A model generated the notes under the pieces. The model did not search any database, had not been told where the DNA came from, and worked only from the letters and a program-made list of their open reading frames with translations. Source: Limnochordia bacterium (GTDB taxonomy: Bacteria > Bacillota > Limnochordia > DTU080). Taken from it: 64,000 nucleotides of DNA. The stretch is from contig JBMNJG010000007.1 in the NCBI GenBank assembly GCA_050951545.1, forward strand, positions 1-64,000, in the 5' to 3' direction. The translations under genes were made by a program, and so were the position numbers. Below are positions 43,390-58,624 of this stretch, piece after piece (positions within the stretch are counted from its first letter, which is position 1; each line of letters starts with the position of its first letter).

Positions 43390-44626
43390 AGGATGCCCGC
43401 AGCAGGGGGCAGATGGCGACCTGGTAGTGCGGCAAGGATGCGTCTACACATCGGAGGGTTTCGTAGAGAATGGCAGCGTGGTGATTTGCGAAGGGCGCAT
43501 TGTCTTTGCCGGGCCGGACGGCCAACTGCCGGAGATGGTGGATGTACCTTGGAGCGGGCGCCAGGTCCGTGTGCCGGATCTACCCACGCTGAACGCCTGT
43601 GACTGCATCGTCTGCCCAGGGCTGATCGATGTACACATGCACGGTGGTGCGGGCCGCGACGTGATGGATGCTCGCCTCGACTCGCTACAGATGATGGCGG
43701 CAGCGCATGGCAGGCACGGCACCACCACGTTTCTGGCTGGATCGATCACGGCGTCTCAGGAGGCGCTAGAGGCGGTTGCCTGGACCGTAAAGGAGGCCAT
43801 GCGAGCTTCACAGCAGCCTGATTGGGGTGGAGCGCAGATTGTCGGTCTGCATCTTGAGGGGCCCTACCTGAGTGTGGAGAAGGCTGGGGCACAAAACCCG
43901 GCCTACCTGCGTCGTCCCTGTCGCCATGAGATTCAGCGTCTTTTTGACATTTTGGGCCCTGGTCTGCGCCATATCACGCTGGCGCCGGAGTTGCCGGGAG
44001 CCTTAGAGATCATCCCTTGGCTGCGGCAGCAGGGCATGCGGGTAGCCATAGGTCACACCGCTGCCAGCTACGAGATCGCCATGGAGGCCATCGCCGCTGG
44101 CGCTGATCACGCCACCCACACCTTCAACGGTATGGTCTCTTTGCATCATCGGGAACCCGGGGTGCTGGGCGCAGTCTTGGGGTCTACAGGGGTGACGGCG
44201 GAGCTCATAGCGGACGGGATCCATATCCATCCGGGTGCCATGCGGGTAGTGTGGCAGGCCAAAGGAAGCTCCCATGTCTGCTTGGTTACCGATTCTGGGA
44301 TGGCCATGGATATGCCAGATGGGCGCTACCTGCTTGGCGAACTGCCTGTGGAAGTCAAAGATGGCGTATGTCGCCTGGTGGATGGCGGAGCGTTGGCCAG
44401 CAGCACATTGGGCATGGATCAGGCAGTGCGCAACATGGTGCAGCTTGTAGGGGTGCCTCTAGCGGAGGCTGTGGACATGGCCACTGCAGTGCCAGCCCGT
44501 CAGTTGGGCATGAGCGATCGCAACGGTTCGGTGCAGGTGGGCAAAGATGGCGACCTATGCTTGCTGGGGCCTGATCTGCTGTGTCGGGAGACGGTGGTTG
44601 CTGGCAGAGTCTTACCGCGCGTCTAG
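43376..44626 (+). CDS. nagA: N-acetylglucosamine-6-phosphate deacetylase
   Basis: PGLIDVHMHG, HLEGPY, GHT, THTFNGM, ADGIHIHP, VTD. Confidence 0.92.
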   Translation: MSETKGCPQQGADGDLVVRQGCVYTSEGFVENGSVVICEGRIVFAGPDGQLPEMVDVPWSGRQVRVPDLPTLNACDCIVCPGLIDVHMHGGAGRDVMDARLDSLQMMAAAHGRHGTTTFLAGSITASQEALEAVAWTVKEAMRASQQPDWGGAQIVGLHLEGPYLSVEKAGAQNPAYLRRPCRHEIQRLFDILGPGLRHITLAPELPGALEIIPWLRQQGMRVAIGHTAASYEIAMEAIAAGADHATHTFNGMVSLHHREPGVLGAVLGSTGVTAELIADGIHIHPGAMRVVWQAKGSSHVCLVTDSGMAMDMPDGRYLLGELPVEVKDGVCRLVDGGALASSTLGMDQAVRNMVQLVGVPLAEAVDMATAVPARQLGMSDRNGSVQVGKDGDLCLLGPDLLCRETVVAGRVLPRV

Positions 44627-45766
44627 CTCTTGGTTCGTCAGCCTTTTCTGGTCATACATGGCCCTGTCAGCCTCATACAGGGCTGCAGGGATATCGGCAG
44701 TGTCGATGGCATGGGCGTAGCCCATGCTAGCAGAGACCCTGATTCCTCTGGCTGACCATTCCTCTTCAAAGCTCTCGGTGACACGGAGCAAAAGCTGCTG
44801 CAGGTCACCCATTTCTTGATGCGTTCGCTGGGTGAGCAAGACGACGAACTCGTCTCCCCCAAAGCGAAACACATGCTCGCCTCCGGCAGCGGCAGCCAGA
44901 TATTTGGCAAAGGACCTCAGTACTCGGTCGCCCATGGCGTGACCGAAGGCATCATTGGCGGCCTTTAGACCGTTGAGATCAAAGGTGGCTAGAAAGTAGG
45001 GGGCATCGGGACGCTGCATCAGGCTGCCCAGTCGCTCATCCCAGGCGTGCCGGTTACCCACCTCTGTCAGAGCATCGCGATGAGCCAGACGCGTGAGGCG
45101 CTTGCGTTGAGCGTACAGCCGGGTGCACTGCCCTGTGCTAAAGACGGTGGCGGATGCTACCAGCAGCGAGGATGCGCCAGCATACTGATAGGCGAGGGCA
45201 GTCAAGATTCCCGTCAGCTGCATGCTCGGACCAGCCCAGCCCTCTGCCAGGATCAGATCATGCAGTATGTCCCACGGGTGGCAGCCTTTTTCTCTAGCGA
45301 CACAAAGACTCGTGGCGATTAGGTTCAGCAGCCAGCGCACGAAGAGCACCCCCACAGCCGCAGCCATACCAGCCCCGCTATATGGGCCAGTCCGATAGCC
45401 CGATAGAGTAAAGAGACCTCCTGCAAGGAATGTGGGGAGGATGCTATTGGCGAGGTTCAGGAGGAGCTTTTGGGGAGGCTGGTGGAGGCGCCAGGCGACA
45501 CGTAGAGTCACACAGGTGTCCATAAGCACTGCGAGGTGGGTGGGCAAGAGCAGGCGCCCAGCGGCCGTAATGGGGGCGCTGACAGGAGACAGGACGCCTC
45601 CCTCTAACTTCAGGTGCCAGTGGGACAGCAGAAGGGCAAGGGCGACAAAGAGGCCTAGTGTATCAAGCTGGGTGATCTCAACCTGGGAGATGGCCCAGAC
45701 TAGCACGACGCTTGCCGCAGCGATGAAGGTAGTCAACAGCATACGGGTCAGCCGCAATGCGGACAC
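44612..45766 (-). CDS. Membrane-bound diguanylate cyclase (multi-TM sensor plus GGDEF, no obvious I-site)
   Basis: DALTEVGNR, DLNGLKAANDAFGH, RFGGDEF, ADRAMY; no RxxD before GGDEF. Confidence 0.9.
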   Translation of the reverse strand: MSALRLTRMLLTTFIAAASVVLVWAISQVEITQLDTLGLFVALALLLSHWHLKLEGGVLSPVSAPITAAGRLLLPTHLAVLMDTCVTLRVAWRLHQPPQKLLLNLANSILPTFLAGGLFTLSGYRTGPYSGAGMAAAVGVLFVRWLLNLIATSLCVAREKGCHPWDILHDLILAEGWAGPSMQLTGILTALAYQYAGASSLLVASATVFSTGQCTRLYAQRKRLTRLAHRDALTEVGNRHAWDERLGSLMQRPDAPYFLATFDLNGLKAANDAFGHAMGDRVLRSFAKYLAAAAGGEHVFRFGGDEFVVLLTQRTHQEMGDLQQLLLRVTESFEEEWSARGIRVSASMGYAHAIDTADIPAALYEADRAMYDQKRLTNQELDAR

Positions 45767-48632: not shown

Positions 48633-51600
48633 ATGCGTATGTGTCGAAAAAGCGTGTTTGTCAGCACCGCAGTACTGTGTGCTTGTGCCGTGCTGTTCGG
48701 GTCAGCAGCTACAGCTCCGATCCATGCGAAAAACGGAACGAACTTGCTGACGGCAGAGGAGATGGCGACAATCCGGACATCACAGGCCTGGTCTGGTGTA
48801 AACACCTCAGCGGTGATCACTCTTGCGGATCGCTGGATGAAGTATACGCCGCAGCAATTGCGAGACATGGTGCCACCCGCTAGCGTGCCTCGCGCCTTTG
48901 ACACGCACTTTCTTCAGTGCCCCCAACACAGCGAAGAGATCAAGGCCTTTGGTAGCTATCCGTGGATCATCGATCCGGATAGGCCCTACAAGCTCATCTG
49001 CCCGGTGGGCGGCGAAGCTTATCCGACCAATGACTTTGATCACCACCACCACGGTGGGCCGGATGATGTCTCGTCCGAGCCTTACGTCGACACGGGTTGG
49101 GGGTGGCGCGACCCAAACCATCCCCAAAAGTACTGGTTTGTCGCTTACTACGCGCACTGGCTGTATCACGCTCATCTACGTCCAGCAGCGGTGGCCTTGG
49201 GGCAAGCCTATGTGCTCACTGGTGATGTGCGCTATGCCACGCAAGGGGCGGCACTGCTAGATCGCATTGCCGAAGAGTATCCAGACATGGACCACGTCAA
49301 ACAGTCTCGCTATGGTACCGAGATCCAGGTGGGCACCTACCAGGGCCGCATTCTGAACTGCATTTGGGAGACGGGCATGGCGCGTGATCTCGCCGTGGCC
49401 TATGACTACGTGTATTCAGGTATGGACGGCAACCGGGCCTTGGAGGAGGCGACAGGCAAGAGCATCGCTCGAATTCGGCAGAACATCGAGGTTAACCTGT
49501 TGGAGAGTGCTGCCCAATCGATTTACACGATGGATGGGCGCATCCGGGGCAATTTCGGTATGCACCATAGCGCCCTGGCCACTCTGGCTATTGTCCTCGA
49601 CAATCACATGACCGATCGTTATCTTGACTTCGTGCTCTATGCCACGGGGTTGGGCTCTTATCCCTATGAGGGGATTATCATGGGGCTGTCCAACCTCGTC
49701 TATCGAGACGGGGCACCCTTCGAAAGCTCCCCTGGCTATAACTCACTGTGGATTGGTCAGTTCAATGCGGTAGCGGAGCTGTTCTTGCGTCGGGGGATCA
49801 ATGTGTACCAGCAAGAGCCTAAGCTGAAGCGGCTCTTTGATTACCCGCTGAAGATCGTGATGGCTGATCAGTTCACCCCAAATATCGGTGACGAAGGCAG
49901 CGTAAAGGCGAAGGGTATCACTGGCTGGCGGGCTTCTACCTACAAGACGGCTTTTGAGCAGTGGGATGAGCGGGCCTATGTAACTGGTAGGCCGTTGACG
50001 ACGGCCAGTGACAACATGAGCGCTTACGGCTTGGCCATGTTGCGCAGTGGCAGCGGTTCGAATGCCACGGGTTTGAGCCTATACTACGGTCCTGCTGGAG
50101 GCCATGGTCACTATGATCGGCTAAACATTGAGCTTTTCGCTAAAGGCGAGCGTCTGCTGCCTGATCTGGGCTATCCGGAGTACATGAGTGGATTCCACAA
50201 GAAGCTCTGTGGCTGGACAGGTCACACCATCAGCCACAACACAGTCTTGGTGAATGAACGGCGGCAGCTCAGCAAGAACGGCGGTCGCCTGCAGCTTTTC
50301 AGTGGCTCACCCAAAGTCCAGTATGTTGACGTGCGGGCAGAAGAGGCCTACCAGGGCATCGCCAGCCGGTACCAACGGTCTGTAGCCATGGTTAGTGCCA
50401 CCGCAAGCGATGTCTATGTCGTCGATGTCTTTCGCGTGCATGGCGGCCATCAGCACGACTTCTCCATCCATGGGCCTGATGGGGCGTTTTCTGTGCAAGA
50501 TCTGACCTTGACACCGCCGCGCCCGGAGGGCACATTGGCGGGTACTGACGTGCCCTTCGGCTATCTCTACGATGCTGCTCATTTGGAGCGACCGGGCTAC
50601 ACAGGTGGCTACGGAAGCTACCAGGGTAGCGGTTTTTCGTATCTGCGTTCTGTGCAAAAGGGACAGCCGGAAGGGGTATGGCACGCCGATTGGGCGCTTG
50701 AGGCTAGAAAGGGAGTTCGCCTGAGCTTCGTTCCGGAGGCGGGCACGGAAGTCTTTGTCGCCGATGGAGAGCCGCCACAGAATAAGGCAGGCAACCCGCC
50801 GACGCTCAAGTATGTGTTGGCCCGTAGGAAGACGGAGGCAGGGGACGCCCTGGGTAGCACTTTCGTCACAGTGCTGCAACCCCACGAGGGTGTGCCTTTT
50901 GTTGACGACATCCGGCGGCTAGAGGCGGCGGATGGCGGCGATCAAGGTGTGGTGGCGCTACAGATCTCGCATGCCCACGGCGAGGATCTCGTCTTGCAGA
51001 GCGTCGATGCGGCCAGTGCATTCCGTGGCACTGACGGCACGTGTTTCAGCGGCTTGCTCGGGGTACTCTCGCGAACCACTGGTGGGATAGTCAACCACGC
51101 TCAGCTACTAGGCGGCGGCGTGCTTCAGCACAACGACTTCCTTCTTGAATCGGCAAGATCCTATACAGGAAGCGTCGTGGCTGCGGACTACGGGGCAGGT
51201 ACCATCATCGTCAAACTCGATCCCGATGCCCCAGCCATGCCCCTGGCGAAGCTGCTAGACGGTCAGCGTATCGTAGTCTCCAACGAGAGGCACGCTTCGG
51301 AGTTTGTGGTCAGTCAGGTAGAGGCCCTCGACGGGCGGCGCTATAAGGTCACCTTTCAAGAGCCAGTGGATCTGACAGGCCAGGGAAAAGTGACTGGCAT
51401 TGCGCCACAGTCTGTCAGCACCAGCACTCCGCTACCCTTGGGTAACTACTACGTGGGTCAGCAGCTGGTCAACCCGACAACCGGGCAAGCCGTACGCATC
51501 GCGAGCATTTCCGGTGCCAACATACGGCTGGAATCTAGAGACAGTGATGTAAGGCCGGGCGAGATGTTTCACATCTACGACTTCGGAGCCGGAGATCGCT

Positions 51601-52487
51601 TCCAGATTGCCAGCTCAATTCATCTGCATAGCGTGGACGGCAGCGGTCTCTATCAGGTGAGTAGTAACACCACAGGCCGCGTGGCTCTTTGGGATGGGCA
51701 GGAGCATCGTCTCGAGCCTGGCGAATGCCAGATTCGGGTGCCAACGATCAGCGTGGAGGTGCTCTCGCCCCTCTATGACGACCAGATCGTGGGCACACTG
51801 AAACCCGAGATCAGGCTCGGGATACCCCGGGAGCTCTCCTTGGCACATGTCGAGGTTACCTTCGCCGGACAGACTGTCTACAGCGGTGCACAGATGCCTG
51901 CTTCTGAGGCATTGGCCTTTGACACAAGAGCTCTTGAGGACGGCCAGTATTTGCTCACTGTGGAAGTGACGGATTCGTTGGGGAAGATCACCGCTAAGAG
52001 GATGCCTCTGCGTGTGCAGAACTGGTGGACTCTCGTGGCAGATCTGTGGGAGCCTCTAGCGAGCGGTTGGTTTGGTGATTTCGACTTCAACGAGATCTAT
52101 GATCGCTCACCAGGTTGGGTGTTTGTCAAGGATGAAGCAGAGGCTTTTCATGACGACCCACATCGCATGACTCGCACAGGGCCCACTGACGAGTACCTGA
52201 TTTGGGAAAGTCCAGCTCTGCAGCGCTTTGAGCTCGTCTTTTTCGCTAAGCAGGTGCTGGCCCCTGAGGATGTGGAATGCGCGATCTCGACCGATGGGGT
52301 GCAGTGGCAGCCGATTCCCTACAGCCTACATGCGGGAGGGGTCTCCCAGTCGGGTTGGCGGCTCTTGGAGCTGTGCGGTGAACAGGCGCCGGACCCGGCC
52401 ACCGGGTTCTTCCGGGTGCAGCTGCGGGCTGGCGCACCCGCCGAATTGCAGCTGGGGCGAGTCAGTTTGAGAGGGCAGCAACCCTAG
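48633..52487 (+). CDS. Secreted heparinase II/III-like polysaccharide lyase with Ig-like and extra domains
   Basis: Signal peptide; FESSPGYN, GHGHYDRLN, PDLGYP, TISHNTVLVN. Confidence 0.78.
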   Translation: MRMCRKSVFVSTAVLCACAVLFGSAATAPIHAKNGTNLLTAEEMATIRTSQAWSGVNTSAVITLADRWMKYTPQQLRDMVPPASVPRAFDTHFLQCPQHSEEIKAFGSYPWIIDPDRPYKLICPVGGEAYPTNDFDHHHHGGPDDVSSEPYVDTGWGWRDPNHPQKYWFVAYYAHWLYHAHLRPAAVALGQAYVLTGDVRYATQGAALLDRIAEEYPDMDHVKQSRYGTEIQVGTYQGRILNCIWETGMARDLAVAYDYVYSGMDGNRALEEATGKSIARIRQNIEVNLLESAAQSIYTMDGRIRGNFGMHHSALATLAIVLDNHMTDRYLDFVLYATGLGSYPYEGIIMGLSNLVYRDGAPFESSPGYNSLWIGQFNAVAELFLRRGINVYQQEPKLKRLFDYPLKIVMADQFTPNIGDEGSVKAKGITGWRASTYKTAFEQWDERAYVTGRPLTTASDNMSAYGLAMLRSGSGSNATGLSLYYGPAGGHGHYDRLNIELFAKGERLLPDLGYPEYMSGFHKKLCGWTGHTISHNTVLVNERRQLSKNGGRLQLFSGSPKVQYVDVRAEEAYQGIASRYQRSVAMVSATASDVYVVDVFRVHGGHQHDFSIHGPDGAFSVQDLTLTPPRPEGTLAGTDVPFGYLYDAAHLERPGYTGGYGSYQGSGFSYLRSVQKGQPEGVWHADWALEARKGVRLSFVPEAGTEVFVADGEPPQNKAGNPPTLKYVLARRKTEAGDALGSTFVTVLQPHEGVPFVDDIRRLEAADGGDQGVVALQISHAHGEDLVLQSVDAASAFRGTDGTCFSGLLGVLSRTTGGIVNHAQLLGGGVLQHNDFLLESARSYTGSVVAADYGAGTIIVKLDPDAPAMPLAKLLDGQRIVVSNERHASEFVVSQVEALDGRRYKVTFQEPVDLTGQGKVTGIAPQSVSTSTPLPLGNYYVGQQLVNPTTGQAVRIASISGANIRLESRDSDVRPGEMFHIYDFGAGDRFQIASSIHLHSVDGSGLYQVSSNTTGRVALWDGQEHRLEPGECQIRVPTISVEVLSPLYDDQIVGTLKPEIRLGIPRELSLAHVEVTFAGQTVYSGAQMPASEALAFDTRALEDGQYLLTVEVTDSLGKITAKRMPLRVQNWWTLVADLWEPLASGWFGDFDFNEIYDRSPGWVFVKDEAEAFHDDPHRMTRTGPTDEYLIWESPALQRFELVFFAKQVLAPEDVECAISTDGVQWQPIPYSLHAGGVSQSGWRLLELCGEQAPDPATGFFRVQLRAGAPAELQLGRVSLRGQQP

Positions 52488-52513: not shown

Positions 52514-54460
52514 ATGCACATCAAAGACTACCTGAACGATATAGCTGAGCAGATCACAGCTGGGGCGCCAGCGCAGTTGCCGCCGCCCGAGATGTGGGAG
52601 GCGTGGAGACGCCAGCGCCAACAGCAGTACCTGAAGATGATGGGGTTAGATCGTCATCTGGCAGTGCCGCGGTCGCCGCTTAATGTGCAGGTTACGCAGA
52701 CTCATCAGCGTGAGGGCTATCGTATCGAGTGTCTGAGCTATGAGAGCTTACCTGGGCTCATGGTGGCCGCCAACTGCTATATCCCTGATGGCGCTGTCAA
52801 TGCACCAGCCATTCTCTATGTGTGTGGCCACTCACTCTTGCAGAAGGCCTCTCACTACCAAGAGCATGCGCGGCGTTATGCGCAGCTGGGCTTTGTCACG
52901 CTTATCGTGGACACCATCGAGTTGGGAGAGGTGCGGGGTTACCACCACGGCACCTATAGCTATGGTGCTTTCCAGTGGGTCAGCCGTGGCTACACGCCGG
53001 CGGCGGTGGAAGTCTGGAATGGCATTCGCGGTATTGATCTGTTAAGCGCCCGTCCGGAGGTCGATGCGTCACGCATTGGCGTGACGGGGACATCTGGCGG
53101 GGGGGCCATCACCTGGTGGCTGTCCTGCGCTGACGACCGGGTGAAGGCCGCCTCTTCGTCGTGCGGTACGAGTACCATTGCCGCCCATGTCCGTGAGCGG
53201 ACGATCGATGGTCACTGCGACTGCATGTTTCCCATGAATCCCCAGGGGTGGTCACTCGTCGATTTCGCTGCCCTGGTGGCCCCGCGACCGATGCTTATTG
53301 TCTCGGCAGACCGTGACGGTATCTTCACTATCGATTCCATCAACGATTTCCGCGATCGCTTGGCCAAGGTATATGAGCATCTTGGGGCGCCGGAGAGTCT
53401 CGATCTGTTCACATTCCGGGCTCATCACTCTTACCAGCCGATGTCTCGCAAGGTCACCTTCCAGTGGTTCTTGCGCCATCTGGCAGGCAAGCAGCTAGCC
53501 ATTGAGGAGATCGCTGACATCGACGGGCATGTGGAAGAGGCCAGCACCTTGGCTGTGTTCGGTGGTCGGCTGCCAGCAAAAGACCGAGCATCGACCGTGC
53601 AGGATTGGTTTGTGCCGGTAGCCACCCCACCCCAGATCAACGATACCGTAGTCCTAAAGAAGGAACGCGAGCGAGTGATCGCCGCTCTGAAAGAGGAGAC
53701 CTTCGCTACTTTCCCTGATCCTTTGCCAGATCCCAAGCCGCAGGTGACCATGGAGGATTTCACTGGCGGAGGATACAAGAATGTCCACTTGCGTTACACG
53801 CCGGAAGCCAACTGGAGCTTGGCTGCTTCTTTGCACATTCCCCTGGGCGGAGAAGAGCAAGCACCAGTTGTCGTCGATCTGGCAGATGCGGACGATGTGC
53901 GCCTACAGCCGGGGCGTCGTGTCTCAGCCATTTGCCCCAGCGCTTGGTGGCGCGCCTCGCTCTCGCCGCGGGGAACAGGTGATACAGGATGGAGCCGCTC
54001 GCTTCACTGGCATTTGCGGCGTTCGGCGGCCCTGACCGGTAGAACACTGGCCTCGTTGCGCGTGCTTGATGTGCTACAGGGCTTGAGGGCCCTGAGGCAG
54101 CAGCCCGGTGTAGACCCGAAGAGGTTCTATCTGGCGGCTCGCGGTGAGATGGCAGCAGTAGCTTTGTATGCAGCTTTGCTTGATGGGCAAGTGGCCGGGG
54201 TGATCTTGAGCGATCCACCTGCTACACAGAACGCACCGGACAGCGAAGTCGGTGTGGGTCCGTTAGTGGAGATGCTGGATTGCTTGCGGATCACGGATTT
54301 GCCTCAGGTGGCGGGGCTGTTGTGGCCTGCGGCGTTGGTCTTTTTGGGCCCACGGCCGCAGAGTTACATGTGGGCGGAGGATCTGTACAACCGTCTGGGA
54401 GCGCCGGGAGGCTGTTGGAATGTGTCGCCGCGCAATGCGGCGTGGCGTCCCGAGCAGTAG
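52514..54460 (+). CDS. Two-domain alpha/beta hydrolase (acetylxylan esterase-like)
   Basis: YESLPG, YVCGH, RIGVTGTSGGG, GHCDC; the second domain lacks a canonical GxSxG. Confidence 0.8.
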   Translation: MHIKDYLNDIAEQITAGAPAQLPPPEMWEAWRRQRQQQYLKMMGLDRHLAVPRSPLNVQVTQTHQREGYRIECLSYESLPGLMVAANCYIPDGAVNAPAILYVCGHSLLQKASHYQEHARRYAQLGFVTLIVDTIELGEVRGYHHGTYSYGAFQWVSRGYTPAAVEVWNGIRGIDLLSARPEVDASRIGVTGTSGGGAITWWLSCADDRVKAASSSCGTSTIAAHVRERTIDGHCDCMFPMNPQGWSLVDFAALVAPRPMLIVSADRDGIFTIDSINDFRDRLAKVYEHLGAPESLDLFTFRAHHSYQPMSRKVTFQWFLRHLAGKQLAIEEIADIDGHVEEASTLAVFGGRLPAKDRASTVQDWFVPVATPPQINDTVVLKKERERVIAALKEETFATFPDPLPDPKPQVTMEDFTGGGYKNVHLRYTPEANWSLAASLHIPLGGEEQAPVVVDLADADDVRLQPGRRVSAICPSAWWRASLSPRGTGDTGWSRSLHWHLRRSAALTGRTLASLRVLDVLQGLRALRQQPGVDPKRFYLAARGEMAAVALYAALLDGQVAGVILSDPPATQNAPDSEVGVGPLVEMLDCLRITDLPQVAGLLWPAALVFLGPRPQSYMWAEDLYNRLGAPGGCWNVSPRNAAWRPEQ

Positions 54461-54553
54461 CGGCTGGCTGGTGGGGCTGGTGACGCAGGGACCTCTCGGC
54501 ACGACTTCCGTACCGGGGGGGATGATTCTACGGAAAGTGTTGCTAAGCAAGCC

Positions 54554-54613
54554 TTACGTCACCAGCGTAACCAGAACAGGCTGCACCACCTCCCTAGGAA
54601 TCTCGATTTCCAC
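54554..54613 (-). CDS. Candidate 19-aa small ORF MEIEIPREVVQPVLVTLVT downstream of the riboswitch
   Basis: GTG start close to GGAGG; the only plausible ORF in the riboswitch output region. Confidence 0.3.
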   Translation of the reverse strand: MEIEIPREVVQPVLVTLVT

Positions 54614-54631
54614 AGCCTCCACCAGTGGATG

Positions 54632-54652
54632 AAAAAGACCCTGTGAAGGGTC
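54632..54652 (-). terminator. Intrinsic terminator (riboswitch expression platform)
   Basis: Minus strand GACCC-TTCACA-GGGTC-TTTTT. Confidence 0.7.
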
Positions 54653-54673
54653 CCCGTGCGCACTGTTGTCGCA

Positions 54674-54759
54674 TTCCCTTCGGTAACCCGGCTGTCTGAA
54701 GAGTCCAGACCCGTGGCTTTGCGTCTCTGCCTCACGACGGAGTTGCCCGTATCGGGGAA
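54674..54759 (-). ncRNA. c-di-GMP-I (GEMM) riboswitch
   Basis: Minus strand TTCCCCGATACGGGCAACTCCGTC-GTGA-GGCAGAGACGCAAAGCCACGGGTCTG..CAGACAGCCGGGTTACCGAAGGGAA matches the GEMM-I consensus (GGCAA, GNRA loop, GACGCAAAGCC, GTTACCGA); G at the G20-equivalent position. Confidence 0.9.
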
Positions 54760-54930
54760 GCTGCAGTTAGGACTACCATGTTGATTGTAGCAGGACCCTT
54801 GGCCTTTGTGGGTGTCTCCTGAGGATGTGGGACCAAAATGAGACCATCTAGGGCAAAAGGTCTATGGCTCAGGGTAGAGATAGCACATGCCCGCACAACA
54901 CAACCCGATTTCGGGAAGGAGCGATTGGCA

Positions 54931-56157
54931 ATGGCTGCCCCCAAACGCGATGTGAACTACGACGAAAACAAGGTGCCCGTCTTTAGTCTGCCCGATCCTC
55001 TGACACTAGGGGATGGTGAGCCAGTGACGGATGCTCAGACCTGGTTTCGCCGTCGCCGGCCCGAGGTGCTGGAACTATTCAAGACTCAGGTATATGGCAA
55101 GGTACCTGGACCTCCCAAGCAGCTGTTCTATGAAGTATTTGAACAGGATTCCAGTGCTCTGGAAGGCCAGGCCGTGCGCAAACAGGTCTGGATCAGCTTC
55201 ACTGGCCAAAAGGAAGGTCCGGGCATGGAGATGCTTATCTATCTGCCAAAGGAAGCTAAGCAGCCAGTCCCGCTGTTTTTGGGGCTAAACTTTCACGGCA
55301 ACCATACGGTGCATCCAGATCCCAAGATCAAGCTTCCCGATAGCTGGGTGCGACCCAGTGAGGGAGCTGTCGATAACCGGGCTACGGAAAGTGGGCGGGG
55401 CCTGTCGGCTAGCCGCTGGGCCGTGGAGCTGATTCTCTCCCGCGGCTACGGCTTGGCCACGGTCTACTATGGAGACATCGACCCAGACTACCATGACGGC
55501 TTTCAAAACGGAGTGCACCCTCTTTTCTACAGAGAAGGGCAAACGGAGCCCGCTCCCGATGAGTGGGGGTCTATCGGGGCCTGGGCCTGGGGTCTCAGTC
55601 GCGCCTTGGACTACTGTGAGCAGGACCCGCAGATTGATGCGGAGCGGGTCAGCGTCATGGGGCACTCTCGGCTGGGCAAGACCGCCCTGTGGGCGGGAGC
55701 GCTCGATGGCCGGTTTGCCTTGGTGATCTCCAATAACTCAGGTTGTGGCGGGGCTTCGCTCAGCCGCAGACGCTTTGGCGAGACAGTGGAGATCATCAAC
55801 AACGCCTTCCCTCATTGGTTCTGCAGGAACTTTTGGCAGTACAACGGCCGCGAAAACGCGCTGCCAGTGGATCAGCATATGCTCATCGCTCTGATCGCTC
55901 CCCGGCCCGTCTATGTGGCCAGTGCGGAAGAGGACCGCTGGGCTGACCCCCGGGGCGAGTTTCTGGCGGCGAAGGGAGCAGATGCCACCTACCGCCTGCT
56001 GGGCACCGATGGCTTGGCAGCCACTGAGATGCCAGCACTCAGTGAACCGGTGCACAGCACAATTGGCTATCACATCCGTCCTGGTCGACACGATGTGACG
56101 GAATACGACTGGCAGCAGTACCTGGATTTTGCAGACCGGCACTTGCGCTCCGAGTGA
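54931..56157 (+). CDS. Glucuronoyl esterase (CE15)
   Basis: [51 protein letters not shown](D)VT. Confidence 0.9.
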
Positions 56158-56389: not shown

Positions 56390-56851
56390 ATGAATAAATG
56401 GTTGGCAAAGGATGAGCAAGGCTTCACGTTAGTAGAACTGATGATGGTCATCGTCATCCTGGCGATTCTCACTGGCGTGGCGGTGCCGATGGTCAGCAGG
56501 ATGCAGAAGAATGCGTGGAAGGCGAAGCTAACCAGCTTGGCCGATTCGTTGGGGTCGGCGATTGTCGTTGACGCGATGATGGCTATGGATGATGCGGTGA
56601 CTGGGGCGTACTATGCTGGCTGAAGATCGATGAGGCGAGAGGGCTTGTCTCGCTGCCAAAGGATGTTGACGTAGCGACGGACGCTGCTGGTACGGGCGCT
56701 GCGAATGACGGATGCCAAGGCGTACCTGGTTGTCGCCGGAGCGACGAGGATGCGAAGGCGGTGACCATAACGGGCTATCGGAAAGGCAAGAGCTACGGAC
56801 CAACTCTTGCCCGACGGAGGAATGGTGTTCTCCTGGGCCGAGGCCAGCTGA
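56390..56851 (+). pseudogene. pilA: Type IV major pilin, frameshifted in the C-terminal half
   Basis: Class III signal EQG|FTLVELMMVIVILAIL; premature TGA at 56621-56623; protein-like text continues in alternating frames to an in-frame TGA at 56849-56851. Confidence 0.75.
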
Positions 56852-56893: not shown

Positions 56894-58624
56894 ATGGGCC
56901 CCATGCGCCGACGTAGATTAGGCGATATTCTCATCGAAAGAGGGGTCCTGACAGCGGAGCAACTGGGGAAAGCATTAGAGCGCCAGCTTGAAACCAGGGC
57001 ACCACTCGGCGCGGTACTTGTAGAGATGGGGTTGATCAAGGCAGATGTCTTGGCCGACGCCTTGGCAGAGCATCTCGGAGTGCCGCGAGCGGAATGGCGC
57101 CTGGGTAGTCCGGACCCGGAGCTGGCGCTTTTGATACCCATGGAGTTGCTGCGCGAGGGCCGCATCTTTCCCCTGAGTCGTGAAGGCGACTGCCTGCGTC
57201 TGGCGATGGCCGATCCGCTGGATATCTTCACGATCGATGCGGTACGTCAGGTGACTGGGCTTTTCGTAGAACCGGCCGTGGCTACGGAGGCGGAGATCAA
57301 GGCGGCTTTTGATCGGGTCTTCAACTTGTCCTCTGCAGCCCATGAGGTGATCGCTGAGATCGAGGAAGAGCCTGTTGAGGAGAAGTCGCTGGAATCGCTG
57401 ATGGAACAGCAGGTGGACTCCCCTGGGGTGAAGATGGTCAACCTGATCCTGGTCCAAGCGGTGCGCGACCGAGTCAGCGATATCCATATCGAGCCGCGGG
57501 AAGACCGAGTGATCGTCCGTTTTCGAGTGGACGGCGTGCTGCGGGAAGAGATGCGCTTGCCCAGGCAGATCCATTCGGATGTCACCCTGCGACTGAAGGT
57601 GATGGCCGGACTGGACATCACTGAGCGGCGGCGCCCTCAGGATGGACGAATCAAGATCACCATTGAGGGTCAGTCCATCGACTTGCGTATGTCGGTGCTG
57701 CCCACCATCTATGGCGAGAAGACTGTACTGCGTCTTCTAGACAAAAGTAGCGTAGTGTTGCGGGTGGCCGAGATGGGCTACCTTCCTGGTAGCCAAGATG
57801 CCGTGGAACAGATGCTGCGCCTTTCTACAGGCCTGATTCTCGTCACCGGCCCCACAGGCAGCGGCAAAACAACGACGCAGTATGCTCTCTTAAATGAACT
57901 GAACACTCCGGGGCGCAACATCATCACTGTTGAAGATCCAGTGGAGTACAGAATGGACGGGGTCAACCAGGTCCAGGTAAATGCCCGCATCGGTGTCGGC
58001 TTTGCATCTAGTCTGCGGGCCGTGTTGCGGCAGGACCCTGATGTGGTCGTGGTCGGTGAGGTGCGTGATCGCGAGACCGCCGAAATCGCTGTGCGCGCCG
58101 CTCTGACCGGACACTTGGTTCTGGCCACCGTGCACACCAACTCAGCTTGTGCTACACCCGCCCGCTTGATCGACATGGGTGTGGAGCCCTTCCTGGTCTC
58201 AGCTACAATGATCGGTGTGATCTCTCAGAGGCTGGTACGGCGTATCTGCCCCGAATGCAGGGAACAGGTGGGCGTTCTCGACCCGGCAGAGGAGACCTTC
58301 CTCGCTTCCTTTGGAGTGCATAAGCCGCAGCTGTGGCGGGGGCGTGGCTGCCCGGGATGTCGAGGCACAGGCTACCGCGGGCGCCTACCAGTAGAAGAGG
58401 TGCTGACGATCACGCGGGGCGTCCGCCGCTTGCTAGGAGCTCGTGTGTCTGAGGAGCAGGTGGAAGAGGCTGCACGGCATGACGGTTTTCGCACGATGAT
58501 TGAAAACGGTGTCGATAAAGTCTTGGCAGGTCTGACGACGCTTCAGGAGCTCTGGCGGGCGGTGTACTCATTGGAGGACGCTCTAGAGCAACAGCGGCAG
58601 ACAGAAAGCAGGATGAGCACTTGA
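56894..58624 (+). CDS. pilB: T4P assembly ATPase with N-terminal MshEN domain
   Basis: RLGDILIERGVLTAEQLGKALERQ, SDIHIEP, GPTGSGKTTT, LRQDPD, tetracysteine motif. Confidence 0.93.
   Translation: MGPMRRRRLGDILIERGVLTAEQLGKALERQLETRAPLGAVLVEMGLIKADVLADALAEHLGVPRAEWRLGSPDPELALLIPMELLREGRIFPLSREGDCLRLAMADPLDIFTIDAVRQVTGLFVEPAVATEAEIKAAFDRVFNLSSAAHEVIAEIEEEPVEEKSLESLMEQQVDSPGVKMVNLILVQAVRDRVSDIHIEPREDRVIVRFRVDGVLREEMRLPRQIHSDVTLRLKVMAGLDITERRRPQDGRIKITIEGQSIDLRMSVLPTIYGEKTVLRLLDKSSVVLRVAEMGYLPGSQDAVEQMLRLSTGLILVTGPTGSGKTTTQYALLNELNTPGRNIITVEDPVEYRMDGVNQVQVNARIGVGFASSLRAVLRQDPDVVVVGEVRDRETAEIAVRAALTGHLVLATVHTNSACATPARLIDMGVEPFLVSATMIGVISQRLVRRICPECREQVGVLDPAEETFLASFGVHKPQLWRGRGCPGCRGTGYRGRLPVEEVLTITRGVRRLLGARVSEEQVEEAARHDGFRTMIENGVDKVLAGLTTLQELWRAVYSLEDALEQQRQTESRMST

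Follow-up and report, generated by a model that had tools for sequence, protein, structure and literature searches.

A c-di-GMP-I riboswitch without a downstream protein gene in a Limnochordia bacterium, and the conserved structured RNA that it may control

Limnochordia are uncultured bacteria that are abundant in biogas reactors. Most riboswitches for cyclic diguanylate (c-di-GMP) are interpreted through the protein genes that lie downstream of them, and "orphan" copies are usually dropped or taken as antisense regulators. The present analysis concerns such an orphan copy, located in a stretch of 64,000 nucleotides (nt; contig JBMNJG010000007.1, positions 1 to 64,000, hereafter the window) from a Limnochordia bacterium of an anaerobic digester (genome G000, 3.64 Mb). 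Between two plus-strand genes, one for a convergent hydrolase or esterase and one for a divergent glucuronyl esterase, the minus strand carries in succession a promoter element, a c-di-GMP-I (GEMM-I) aptamer, a terminator and a short output RNA with a tract complementary to the 3′ end of 16S ribosomal RNA (rRNA) and a long hairpin (Table 1). This arrangement had been picked out in an earlier reading of the sequence alone (the original prediction), and that observation is confirmed. Taking into account the evidence given below, it is fairly probable that the riboswitch gates a functional non-coding RNA.

The extended −10 element expected from the original prediction is present at 54792-54784 and is kept as TGTTAGAAT in three relatives, namely two species of the same genus (G001 and G002) and one of another genus (G005). 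The two-hexamer promoter scan reports nothing at 54784-54792 in the window; in G005 it calls a TG-extended promoter at this place (TTTACT-18-TAGAAT with TG). The predicted aptamer is equally clear: 54757-54678 scores 62.6 bits with RF01051 (cut-off 35), covers model positions 1-87 of 87 and is the sole GEMM-I match in the whole G000 genome. It also scores 60.4 bits with RF03167, the c-di-GMP-I-GGC variant, which is 1.4 bits over the cut-off of 59. The window aptamer reads GACGCAAAGC against the RF03167 consensus GACGCGAAgC (core GCAAAGC vs GCGAAgC), and its first arm holds a GUGA tetraloop together with two non-standard pairs. All 12 Limnochordia aptamers compared, including that of the window, share the G of the GGC/GGT junction, the CAAAG motif and the CC of ..ACC/..GCC, and the key columns are identical between the GGC-labelled and the RF01051-labelled sequences. 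Since the GGC label hangs on 1.4 bits and these key columns are shared, the window aptamer is treated as an ordinary c-di-GMP-I aptamer. GEMM-I aptamers consist of two helices, with a GNRA tetraloop closing the first arm and conserved nucleotides at the junction; their ligand contacts in the Vc2 structures are G20, A47 and C92. Within the family, RF01051 is present in four of six genomes and missing in G001 and G002.

The terminator proposed downstream of the aptamer is found as a hairpin followed by U5 at 54655-54632. The terminator scan of the window does not list it, and our guess is that an extension of the stem by G-U pairs consumes the T-run. The hexamer CCCUUC (54650-54645) sits within the terminator and is the alternative partner of GAAGGG, the 3′ side of the aptamer stem P1. 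In constrained folding, the form with aptamer and terminator reaches −54.6 kcal/mol, compared to −48.6 kcal/mol for the antiterminator form. The expression platform of G005 follows the same design with a cleaner CCAAAGGG/CCCUUUGG pair. The competition of the 5′ half of the terminator with P1 implies a transcription-terminating OFF switch: when c-di-GMP is high, transcription would stop near 54630, and when it is low, the RNA could be produced. The class I c-di-GMP riboswitches of C. difficile are likewise described as transcriptional OFF switches, two of which control non-coding RNAs (PMC11477304).

Table 1. Features of the riboswitch locus and of genes related to it, in window coordinates
Feature	Position	Strand	Basis or remark
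Extended −10 element TGCTACAAT	54784..54792	-	read in the sequence; no recognisable −35; activity presumed
c-di-GMP-I (GEMM-I) aptamer	54678..54757	-	RF01051 and RF03167 matches
GAAGGG, 3′ side of P1; alternative partners P1 5′ strand or CCCUUC (antiterminator)	54676..54681	-	constrained fold
Intrinsic terminator GGGGACCCU-UCAC-AGGGUC, then UUUUU	54632..54655	-	minimum-energy folds
Conserved downstream element, candidate body of a small RNA (sRNA)	54468..54600	-	relatives; alignment A3; model R1
Shine-Dalgarno-like tract AGGGAGGUGGU	54585..54595	-	11 contiguous pairs with the free 16S tail AUCACCUCCUU
Long imperfect hairpin, 91 nt	54476..54566	-	outer stem 54566-54556/54486-54476; apical stem 54535-54529/54512-54506
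Apical loop GAAUCAUCCCCCCCGG, C-rich 3′ part nearly invariant	54513..54528	-	A3; loop of G005
Convergent alpha/beta-hydrolase or esterase, 648 amino acids (aa)	52514..54460	+	DLH and AXE1 matches, weak; ends 15 nt from the hairpin base
Divergent CE15-type glucuronyl esterase, 408 aa from the conserved Met	54931..56157	+	PF22244, 116 bits
GGDEF-domain gene, 384-aa open reading frame	44612..45766	-	lies on the contig of the sRNA locus; G001 and G002 have the conserved flanks and cleanly lack the gene

About 170 nt separate the terminator from the stop of the convergent gene (54460). As originally proposed, no protein gene follows the riboswitch here, and the relatives, found by searching 41 related genomes at the DNA level and by BLAST of the loci, have no normal gene at this place either. 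In G001 and G002 the locus is syntenic on both sides, and homology to the window is interrupted precisely from 54784 to 54594. In place of the 189 nt with aptamer and terminator there are 54-56 nt, and the promoter and the following ~130 nt (54600-54468) are retained, the element being 73-76% identical to that of the window. In each of the three species the hydrolase gene stops at an equivalent position, so that what is retained lies between genes. The replacement stretch still contains CCGATA-GGTCT, a match to two separated segments of the aptamer, which suggests that the sensor was deleted in the sister species rather than inserted in G000. GGDEF matches number three in G000 and eight in each of G003, G004 (two further genera of the same family) and G005, and none is found in G001 or G002. 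Both sister species retain an HD-GYP ortholog, and PilZ gave no match in any of four genomes. The absence of sensor and GGDEF in the same species, with promoter and RNA kept, is one event in two related genomes; even so, it speaks for c-di-GMP as the ligand of the aptamer and for an independent function of the RNA.

The same architecture recurs in the second genus. In G005, the sole GEMM-I aptamer of the genome is followed by a called terminator, a spacer, GGAGGUG, CUGU and an 81-nt hairpin. The covariance model R1, built from the three genus members G000-G002 (alignment A3), aligns this locus motif for motif, with the stems kept by different base pairs. Because a MAFFT alignment that included G005 misplaced the stems, no four-species model was made. 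The original prediction had proposed a search for GEMM riboswitches followed by GGAGGTGRTSCAG; in its place, a three-motif pattern drawn up from the four sequences of G000, G001, G002 and G005 was used to scan 596 Gb of genome contigs and, in addition, a metagenome collection. It returned three loci among the genomes (G001, G002 and G005, as identified by contig range) and two among the metagenomes, which are 100% identical to those of G001 and G002; chance matches and further relatives were absent. R1 found nothing further in 12 genomes of the order, and a looser motif pattern detected no element in G003 or G004 and one unrelated match in G001.

Stability calculations support the long hairpin. 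Its z-scores are −4.5 in the window and −3.9, −3.7 and −7.8 in the other three species, with none of 200 shuffled sequences as stable, and standard pairs occupy 66 of 66 pair cells in the three species of the genus. One minimum-energy fold truncated the outer stem on its 3′ side and is considered unrepresentative. The original prediction had named a smaller hairpin, CGGTACG-GAAGT-CGTGCCG; this sequence exists at 54514-54496, but the fold backed by the relatives is the 91-nt one. A search of Rfam with 54380-54960 (E up to 10) gave nothing besides the riboswitch, the RsaE family included. The C-rich 3′ part of the apical loop hardly varies, and CCCCCCGGU is found likewise in the apical loop of G005. 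Its C-run and the adjoining GG (54521-54513) have a mean unpaired probability of 0.76 in the read-through RNA, and the predicted unpaired probability of the C-rich loop across the full-length transcripts ranges from 0.55 to 0.87.

A different origin of the hairpin would be that the locus is a decaying relic, in which the riboswitch is left without its former gene, and the hairpin belongs to the 3′ end of the plus-strand esterase mRNA. The plus-strand fold is indeed stable (z = −3.6), and R1 matches the plus strand with 39.5 bits, to be compared with 141-154 bits for its matches to the element. Moreover, of the aptamers found in genomes of the family, that of the window scores lowest with RF01051 (62.6 vs 66.4-68.8 bits), and the riboswitch is gone from the sister species. 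The strand, however, can be judged from the stems, which contain five G-U and no A-C pairs, so that the plus strand would bear five C-A mismatches; this asymmetry speaks for the riboswitch strand and against that of the hydrolase. Furthermore, the extended −10 on the riboswitch strand is kept in four of four species, the unpaired blocks are invariant and the same architecture adjoins a different gene in G005. In G003 (L022 2-1589) and G004 (L021 1-1591), the only GEMM-I aptamer is followed by the gene of a TPR + HD-GYP-like protein with a length of 480 aa or more. When this protein was compared by tblastn with the intergenic regions of G000 and G005, only matches with E > 2 were obtained, and a gene remnant was rejected. 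A decaying relic is thus regarded as distinctly unlikely.

Another explanation that dispenses with a functional RNA is an antisense-acting riboswitch, whose read-through into the convergent esterase gene would lower its expression by antisense pairing or polymerase collision, with the hairpin being incidental. The geometry fits, as the esterase stop lies 15 nt from the hairpin base and no intrinsic terminator was found downstream of the hairpin in G000-G002. In one survey, c-di-GMP riboswitches were the most antisense-enriched family, with 152 antisense vs 2,554 sense cases (PMC9943018). Against this model stand the block-wise conservation and significant folding of the element, and the persistence of promoter and element without the sensor in G001 and G002. 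In G005 a different convergent gene, sulfatase-like, lies at a distance of 210 nt, and the hairpin there is followed by UUUU. Metatranscriptome contigs add some information. Contigs from four libraries of four studies fall on 54472-54837, and three of them, from three studies, bridge the terminator (54541-54748, 54510-54674 and 54526-54757); another spans 54472-54648. Parts of the stretch are without such cover in some runs. None of the RNA-library contigs placed on the locus links the element to the esterase gene; the pieces overlap by 20 nt only, and the point is weak. The read-through transcript on which the original prediction depended is thereby weakly attested: the bridging is seen, with strand and ends not visible. 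Collectively, we consider an antisense role unlikely, while granting it some weight.

The complementarity to 16S rRNA, which had drawn attention to the locus, is partly conserved. All four 16S genes of G000 end in ...GGUGCGGCUGGAUCACCUCCUUUCU. The 15-nt segment GGAGGTGGTGCAGCC / GGAGGUGGUGCAGCC (54593-54579) pairs with the organism's own 16S sequence GGCUGGAUCACCUCC at 14 of 15 positions (13 Watson-Crick pairs and one G-U, with one G-G mismatch), exactly as originally stated. On both strands of the genome, 36 sites match at 14 positions and five at 15, four of the latter being antisense to rRNA genes; the 15-nt match is accordingly rare, though it was noticed post hoc. In the relatives the match falls to 12, 12 and 10 of 15, and the distal part of the target, GGCU, lies inside the helix 45 stem in the fold of the 16S 3′ end. 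What is conserved is a core of 8-11 nt. Positions 54594-54585 are invariant among the three genus members, and in G001 and G002 the tract reads GGGGAGGUGGU, where the first base is G instead of A and pairing is retained. Contiguous pairs with the free 16S tail number 11 in the genus and 8 in G005, with duplex energies of −20.0 (window), −17.5 (G001), −17.5 (G002) and −15.9 kcal/mol (G005). The 11-nt match occurs at 29 non-rRNA sites of G000, compared to 685 for the bare GGAGGTG heptamer.

These data bear directly on the literal model of the original prediction, in which 30S subunits would be sequestered or stalled through a duplex of 15 nt with the 16S 3′ end. The near-complete pairing in G000, the scarcity of comparable sites (only 37 non-rRNA sites in the genome score at least 14 of 15) and a duplex energy of −30.6 kcal/mol with the longer tail speak for it. 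The extension is nevertheless unconserved, the GGCU of its target is already paired, and a single low-copy RNA would be unlikely to titrate ribosomes, so that this model is given very little credence.

Some further features of the tract were noted. A C-rich, anti-Shine-Dalgarno-like stretch (CCACCC, CCGCCACCC, CCCCCCCUCACCCUC) lies upstream of GGAGGUG in L008 (~1625-1667), L009 (~1596-1640) and L023 (~1640-1700), and its counterpart in the window is CAUCCAC at 54630-54624; the minimum-energy fold of G002 pairs this stretch with the GGAGGUG tract. Self-pairing between tract and apical loop was considered and rejected: the energies are −13.7, −23.1, −19.2 and −8.2 kcal/mol, the G005 value is matched by 37% of random 20-mers, and the pairing is unevenly conserved. 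A role as a sponge for CsrA was also discarded; CsrA is encoded, yet a single GGA motif is common to the species.

A strong Shine-Dalgarno sequence could instead serve translation of a tiny peptide, as a micro-ORF (ORF, open reading frame) or leader peptide starting at CUG or an overlapping GUG. The 19-aa ORF of the original prediction does not survive comparison. The ORF over the tract has 22 aa from the first GTG in the window (54622-54554, stop TAA; 19 aa from the second GTG), its counterparts in G001 (78 aa) and G002 (21 aa) end elsewhere, and the 52 variable columns are distributed over the codon phases as 17/18/17, i.e., without three-base periodicity. No ATG, GTG or TTG at a workable spacing is common to the relatives, and in G005 no ORF of at least 50 aa precedes the hairpin. 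As to the CUG start, CUGU is found in four of four species, 9 nt past GGAGG (8 nt in G005), and in the three genus members its frame runs for six codons to a common UGA within the outer stem. The encoded hexapeptides, read by eye, nevertheless differ (MFWLRW, MFRLCR and MSRLCR), and the G005 frame has 11 codons and another stop. Precedent exists in C. difficile, where c-di-GMP riboswitches without an apparent target proved to control small proteins (PMC13724677), for which a length of 58 aa is given (PMC11477304). Downstream of the window riboswitch, no conserved ORF of about that length and nothing akin to the 58-aa membrane protein was found. A peptide product is therefore viewed as highly improbable. 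For the opposite strand, a type I toxin was considered and rejected, the plus-strand ORFs of 36/70, 17 and 74 aa being unconserved and, by eye, not hydrophobic. The original prediction foresaw either an sRNA or micropeptide that may sequester or stall 30S subunits, or a stabilised regulatory RNA, and the latter is the better half.

Returning to the riboswitch-gated non-coding RNA, the following course of events can be proposed. Transcription would begin a few bases past the extended −10. With c-di-GMP bound, P1 would hold GAAGGG, the terminator would form and a riboswitch RNA of ~150 nt would be released. When the ligand is lacking, GAAGGG would pair with CCCUUC and the polymerase would continue for ~160 nt, adding the 11-nt anti-16S tract followed by the 91-nt hairpin with its exposed C-rich loop. 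The resulting RNA would presumably act in trans. Its tract may bind the 30S subunit and shield the RNA from RNase J, in the manner of a STAB-SD element, and an RNase J ortholog is encoded in G000 (657 bits, cut-off 400). The C-rich loop may pair with G-rich ribosome-binding sites of target mRNAs, as RoxS, RsaE or FsrA do. This particular combination of a 30S-bound stabiliser tract with a C-rich targeting loop is put forward tentatively and with low confidence, as a possible mode of action. A bolder variant appears quite improbable: here, the RNA would be a ribosome-directed riboregulator whose 11-nt tract docks on 30S without translation and whose anti-Shine-Dalgarno-like loop acts at the ribosome or next to it. 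Low c-di-GMP would in that case directly reshape translation initiation, and the sister species that lost c-di-GMP synthesis would have made the RNA constitutive by deleting the sensor.

Several observations weigh against a functional RNA gated by the riboswitch or against its proposed action. Within the genus, only one pair is altered on both sides, and the shuffle control is non-significant (167/500); as this covariation is weak, support for the fold comes from its stability, from G005 and from the strand asymmetry. The G005 counterpart scores 15.8 bits (E = 2.4e-4) in a search of 401 nt with filters off and was missed in the whole-genome search. The three-motif pattern, being designed from the same four sequences that it recovers, gauges specificity and does not constitute independent support, and the element is known from four species of two genera, three of which are close kin. 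The loss of GGDEF and of the riboswitch amounts to a single evolutionary event, in genomes of 91-95% estimated completeness (G001 95%, G002 91%; for comparison, G003 93% and G004 96%). After the hairpin, G000-G002 lack an intrinsic terminator and G005 has only UUUU, uncalled by the scan. The metatranscriptome contigs have a depth of 2-7, with strand, ends and level invisible and DNA carry-over possible, and in two of the four runs the flanking genes are covered too. With regard to the mode of action, the Shine-Dalgarno-like tract is predicted to be accessible to a variable degree (0.19-0.69), and a target search with the loop against 23,581 crude start sites returned mostly internal false starts among the top matches and no clear candidate.

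The surroundings of the locus are as follows. The riboswitch lies within a run of polysaccharide-degradation genes, comprising a heparinase II/III-like gene (1284 aa, 48633-52487, +), the esterase-like hydrolase and the CE15 glucuronyl esterase. A pilin-like gene with an N-terminal methylation motif (56390-56623, +) and the gene of a type II/IV secretion (type IV pilus) ATPase with an MshEN domain (56894-58624, +) are located 1.6-2 kb from the riboswitch; MshEN is a c-di-GMP-binding domain. Upstream of the G005 riboswitch, a pilin-like gene and a response regulator are found (L023 3-365 and 648-1034).

Nine other aptamers from Limnochordia each precede an ordinary ORF of at least 129 aa, examples being flgB-like genes and proteins with signal peptides. 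Orthologs of the TPR-HD-GYP protein mentioned above occur without a riboswitch in G000 (C4:295241), G001, G002 and G005; in G003 and G004, the aptamer in front of this gene could form a feedback loop on c-di-GMP breakdown. In genome G021, two tandem GEMM-I aptamers (L018 1502-1584 and 1691-1776, −), ~105 nt apart, precede the gene of a 157-aa protein whose start resembles a signal peptide. In genome G022, a HEARO RNA (RF02033, 128.5 bits; L016 2129-2335, +) is found ~560 nt from a GEMM-I aptamer.

The locus provides a comparative argument for an orphan riboswitch gating a stand-alone structured RNA, in which the sister species serve as a natural experiment: the sensor is deleted where no diguanylate cyclases were detected, and RNA and promoter are kept. 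If this is true, c-di-GMP signalling in Limnochordia would possess a trans-acting RNA arm, and a new small family of sRNAs would join a STAB-SD-like tract with a C-rich loop, narrow in scope with two genera so far.

Among known systems, the closest are RCd11, RCd12 and the orphan copy between CD2517 and CD2517.1 of C. difficile, in which, as is proposed for the window, a GEMM-I aptamer with a terminator forms an OFF switch that governs a short RNA instead of a protein gene (PMC11477304). Those RNAs are antitoxins antisense to prophage type I toxin genes and have a second promoter (PMC11477304), whereas the RNA of the window is a long hairpin with a C-rich loop, and reading of the plus-strand ORFs revealed no toxin-like ORF opposite to it. 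Antisense-acting riboswitches resemble the locus in that they point towards the 3′ end of a convergent gene no more than 500 nt away (PMC9943018); here, in contrast, the convergent gene differs between the two genera and a conserved structured RNA intervenes. The V. cholerae riboswitch Vc2 is also tied to the level of an sRNA, but there the riboswitch makes up the 3′ end of an sRNA encoded upstream and influences its stability, whereas the window riboswitch lies 5′ of the RNA and would terminate its transcription (bioRxiv 10.1101/617340).

For the two parts of the output RNA, parallels are found in other Bacillota. The STAB-SD of B. thuringiensis cry3A is a Shine-Dalgarno-like sequence that binds 30S without initiation and blocks RNase J1 (PMC4113751), and the window tract shares with it the long complementarity to the 16S 3′ end and a Bacillota host with RNase J; no start codon common to the relatives follows the tract. 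STAB-SD stabilises an mRNA, whereas the window tract, with its putative 30S binding, would head a non-coding hairpin RNA. The exposed C-run in a hairpin loop, which could pair with G-rich ribosome-binding sites, is reminiscent of RoxS/RsaE, FsrA and CsfG, and the presence of G-rich and C-rich parts in one molecule recalls RsaI (PMC8216469). Unlike RoxS/RsaE-type sRNAs, the RNA described here has a single C-rich loop, is riboswitch-gated and has no Rfam match, so that the resemblance would be functional only. Riboswitch-controlled non-coding RNAs are thus already known as a kind, and it is the output sRNA family, narrowly distributed, that appears to be new.

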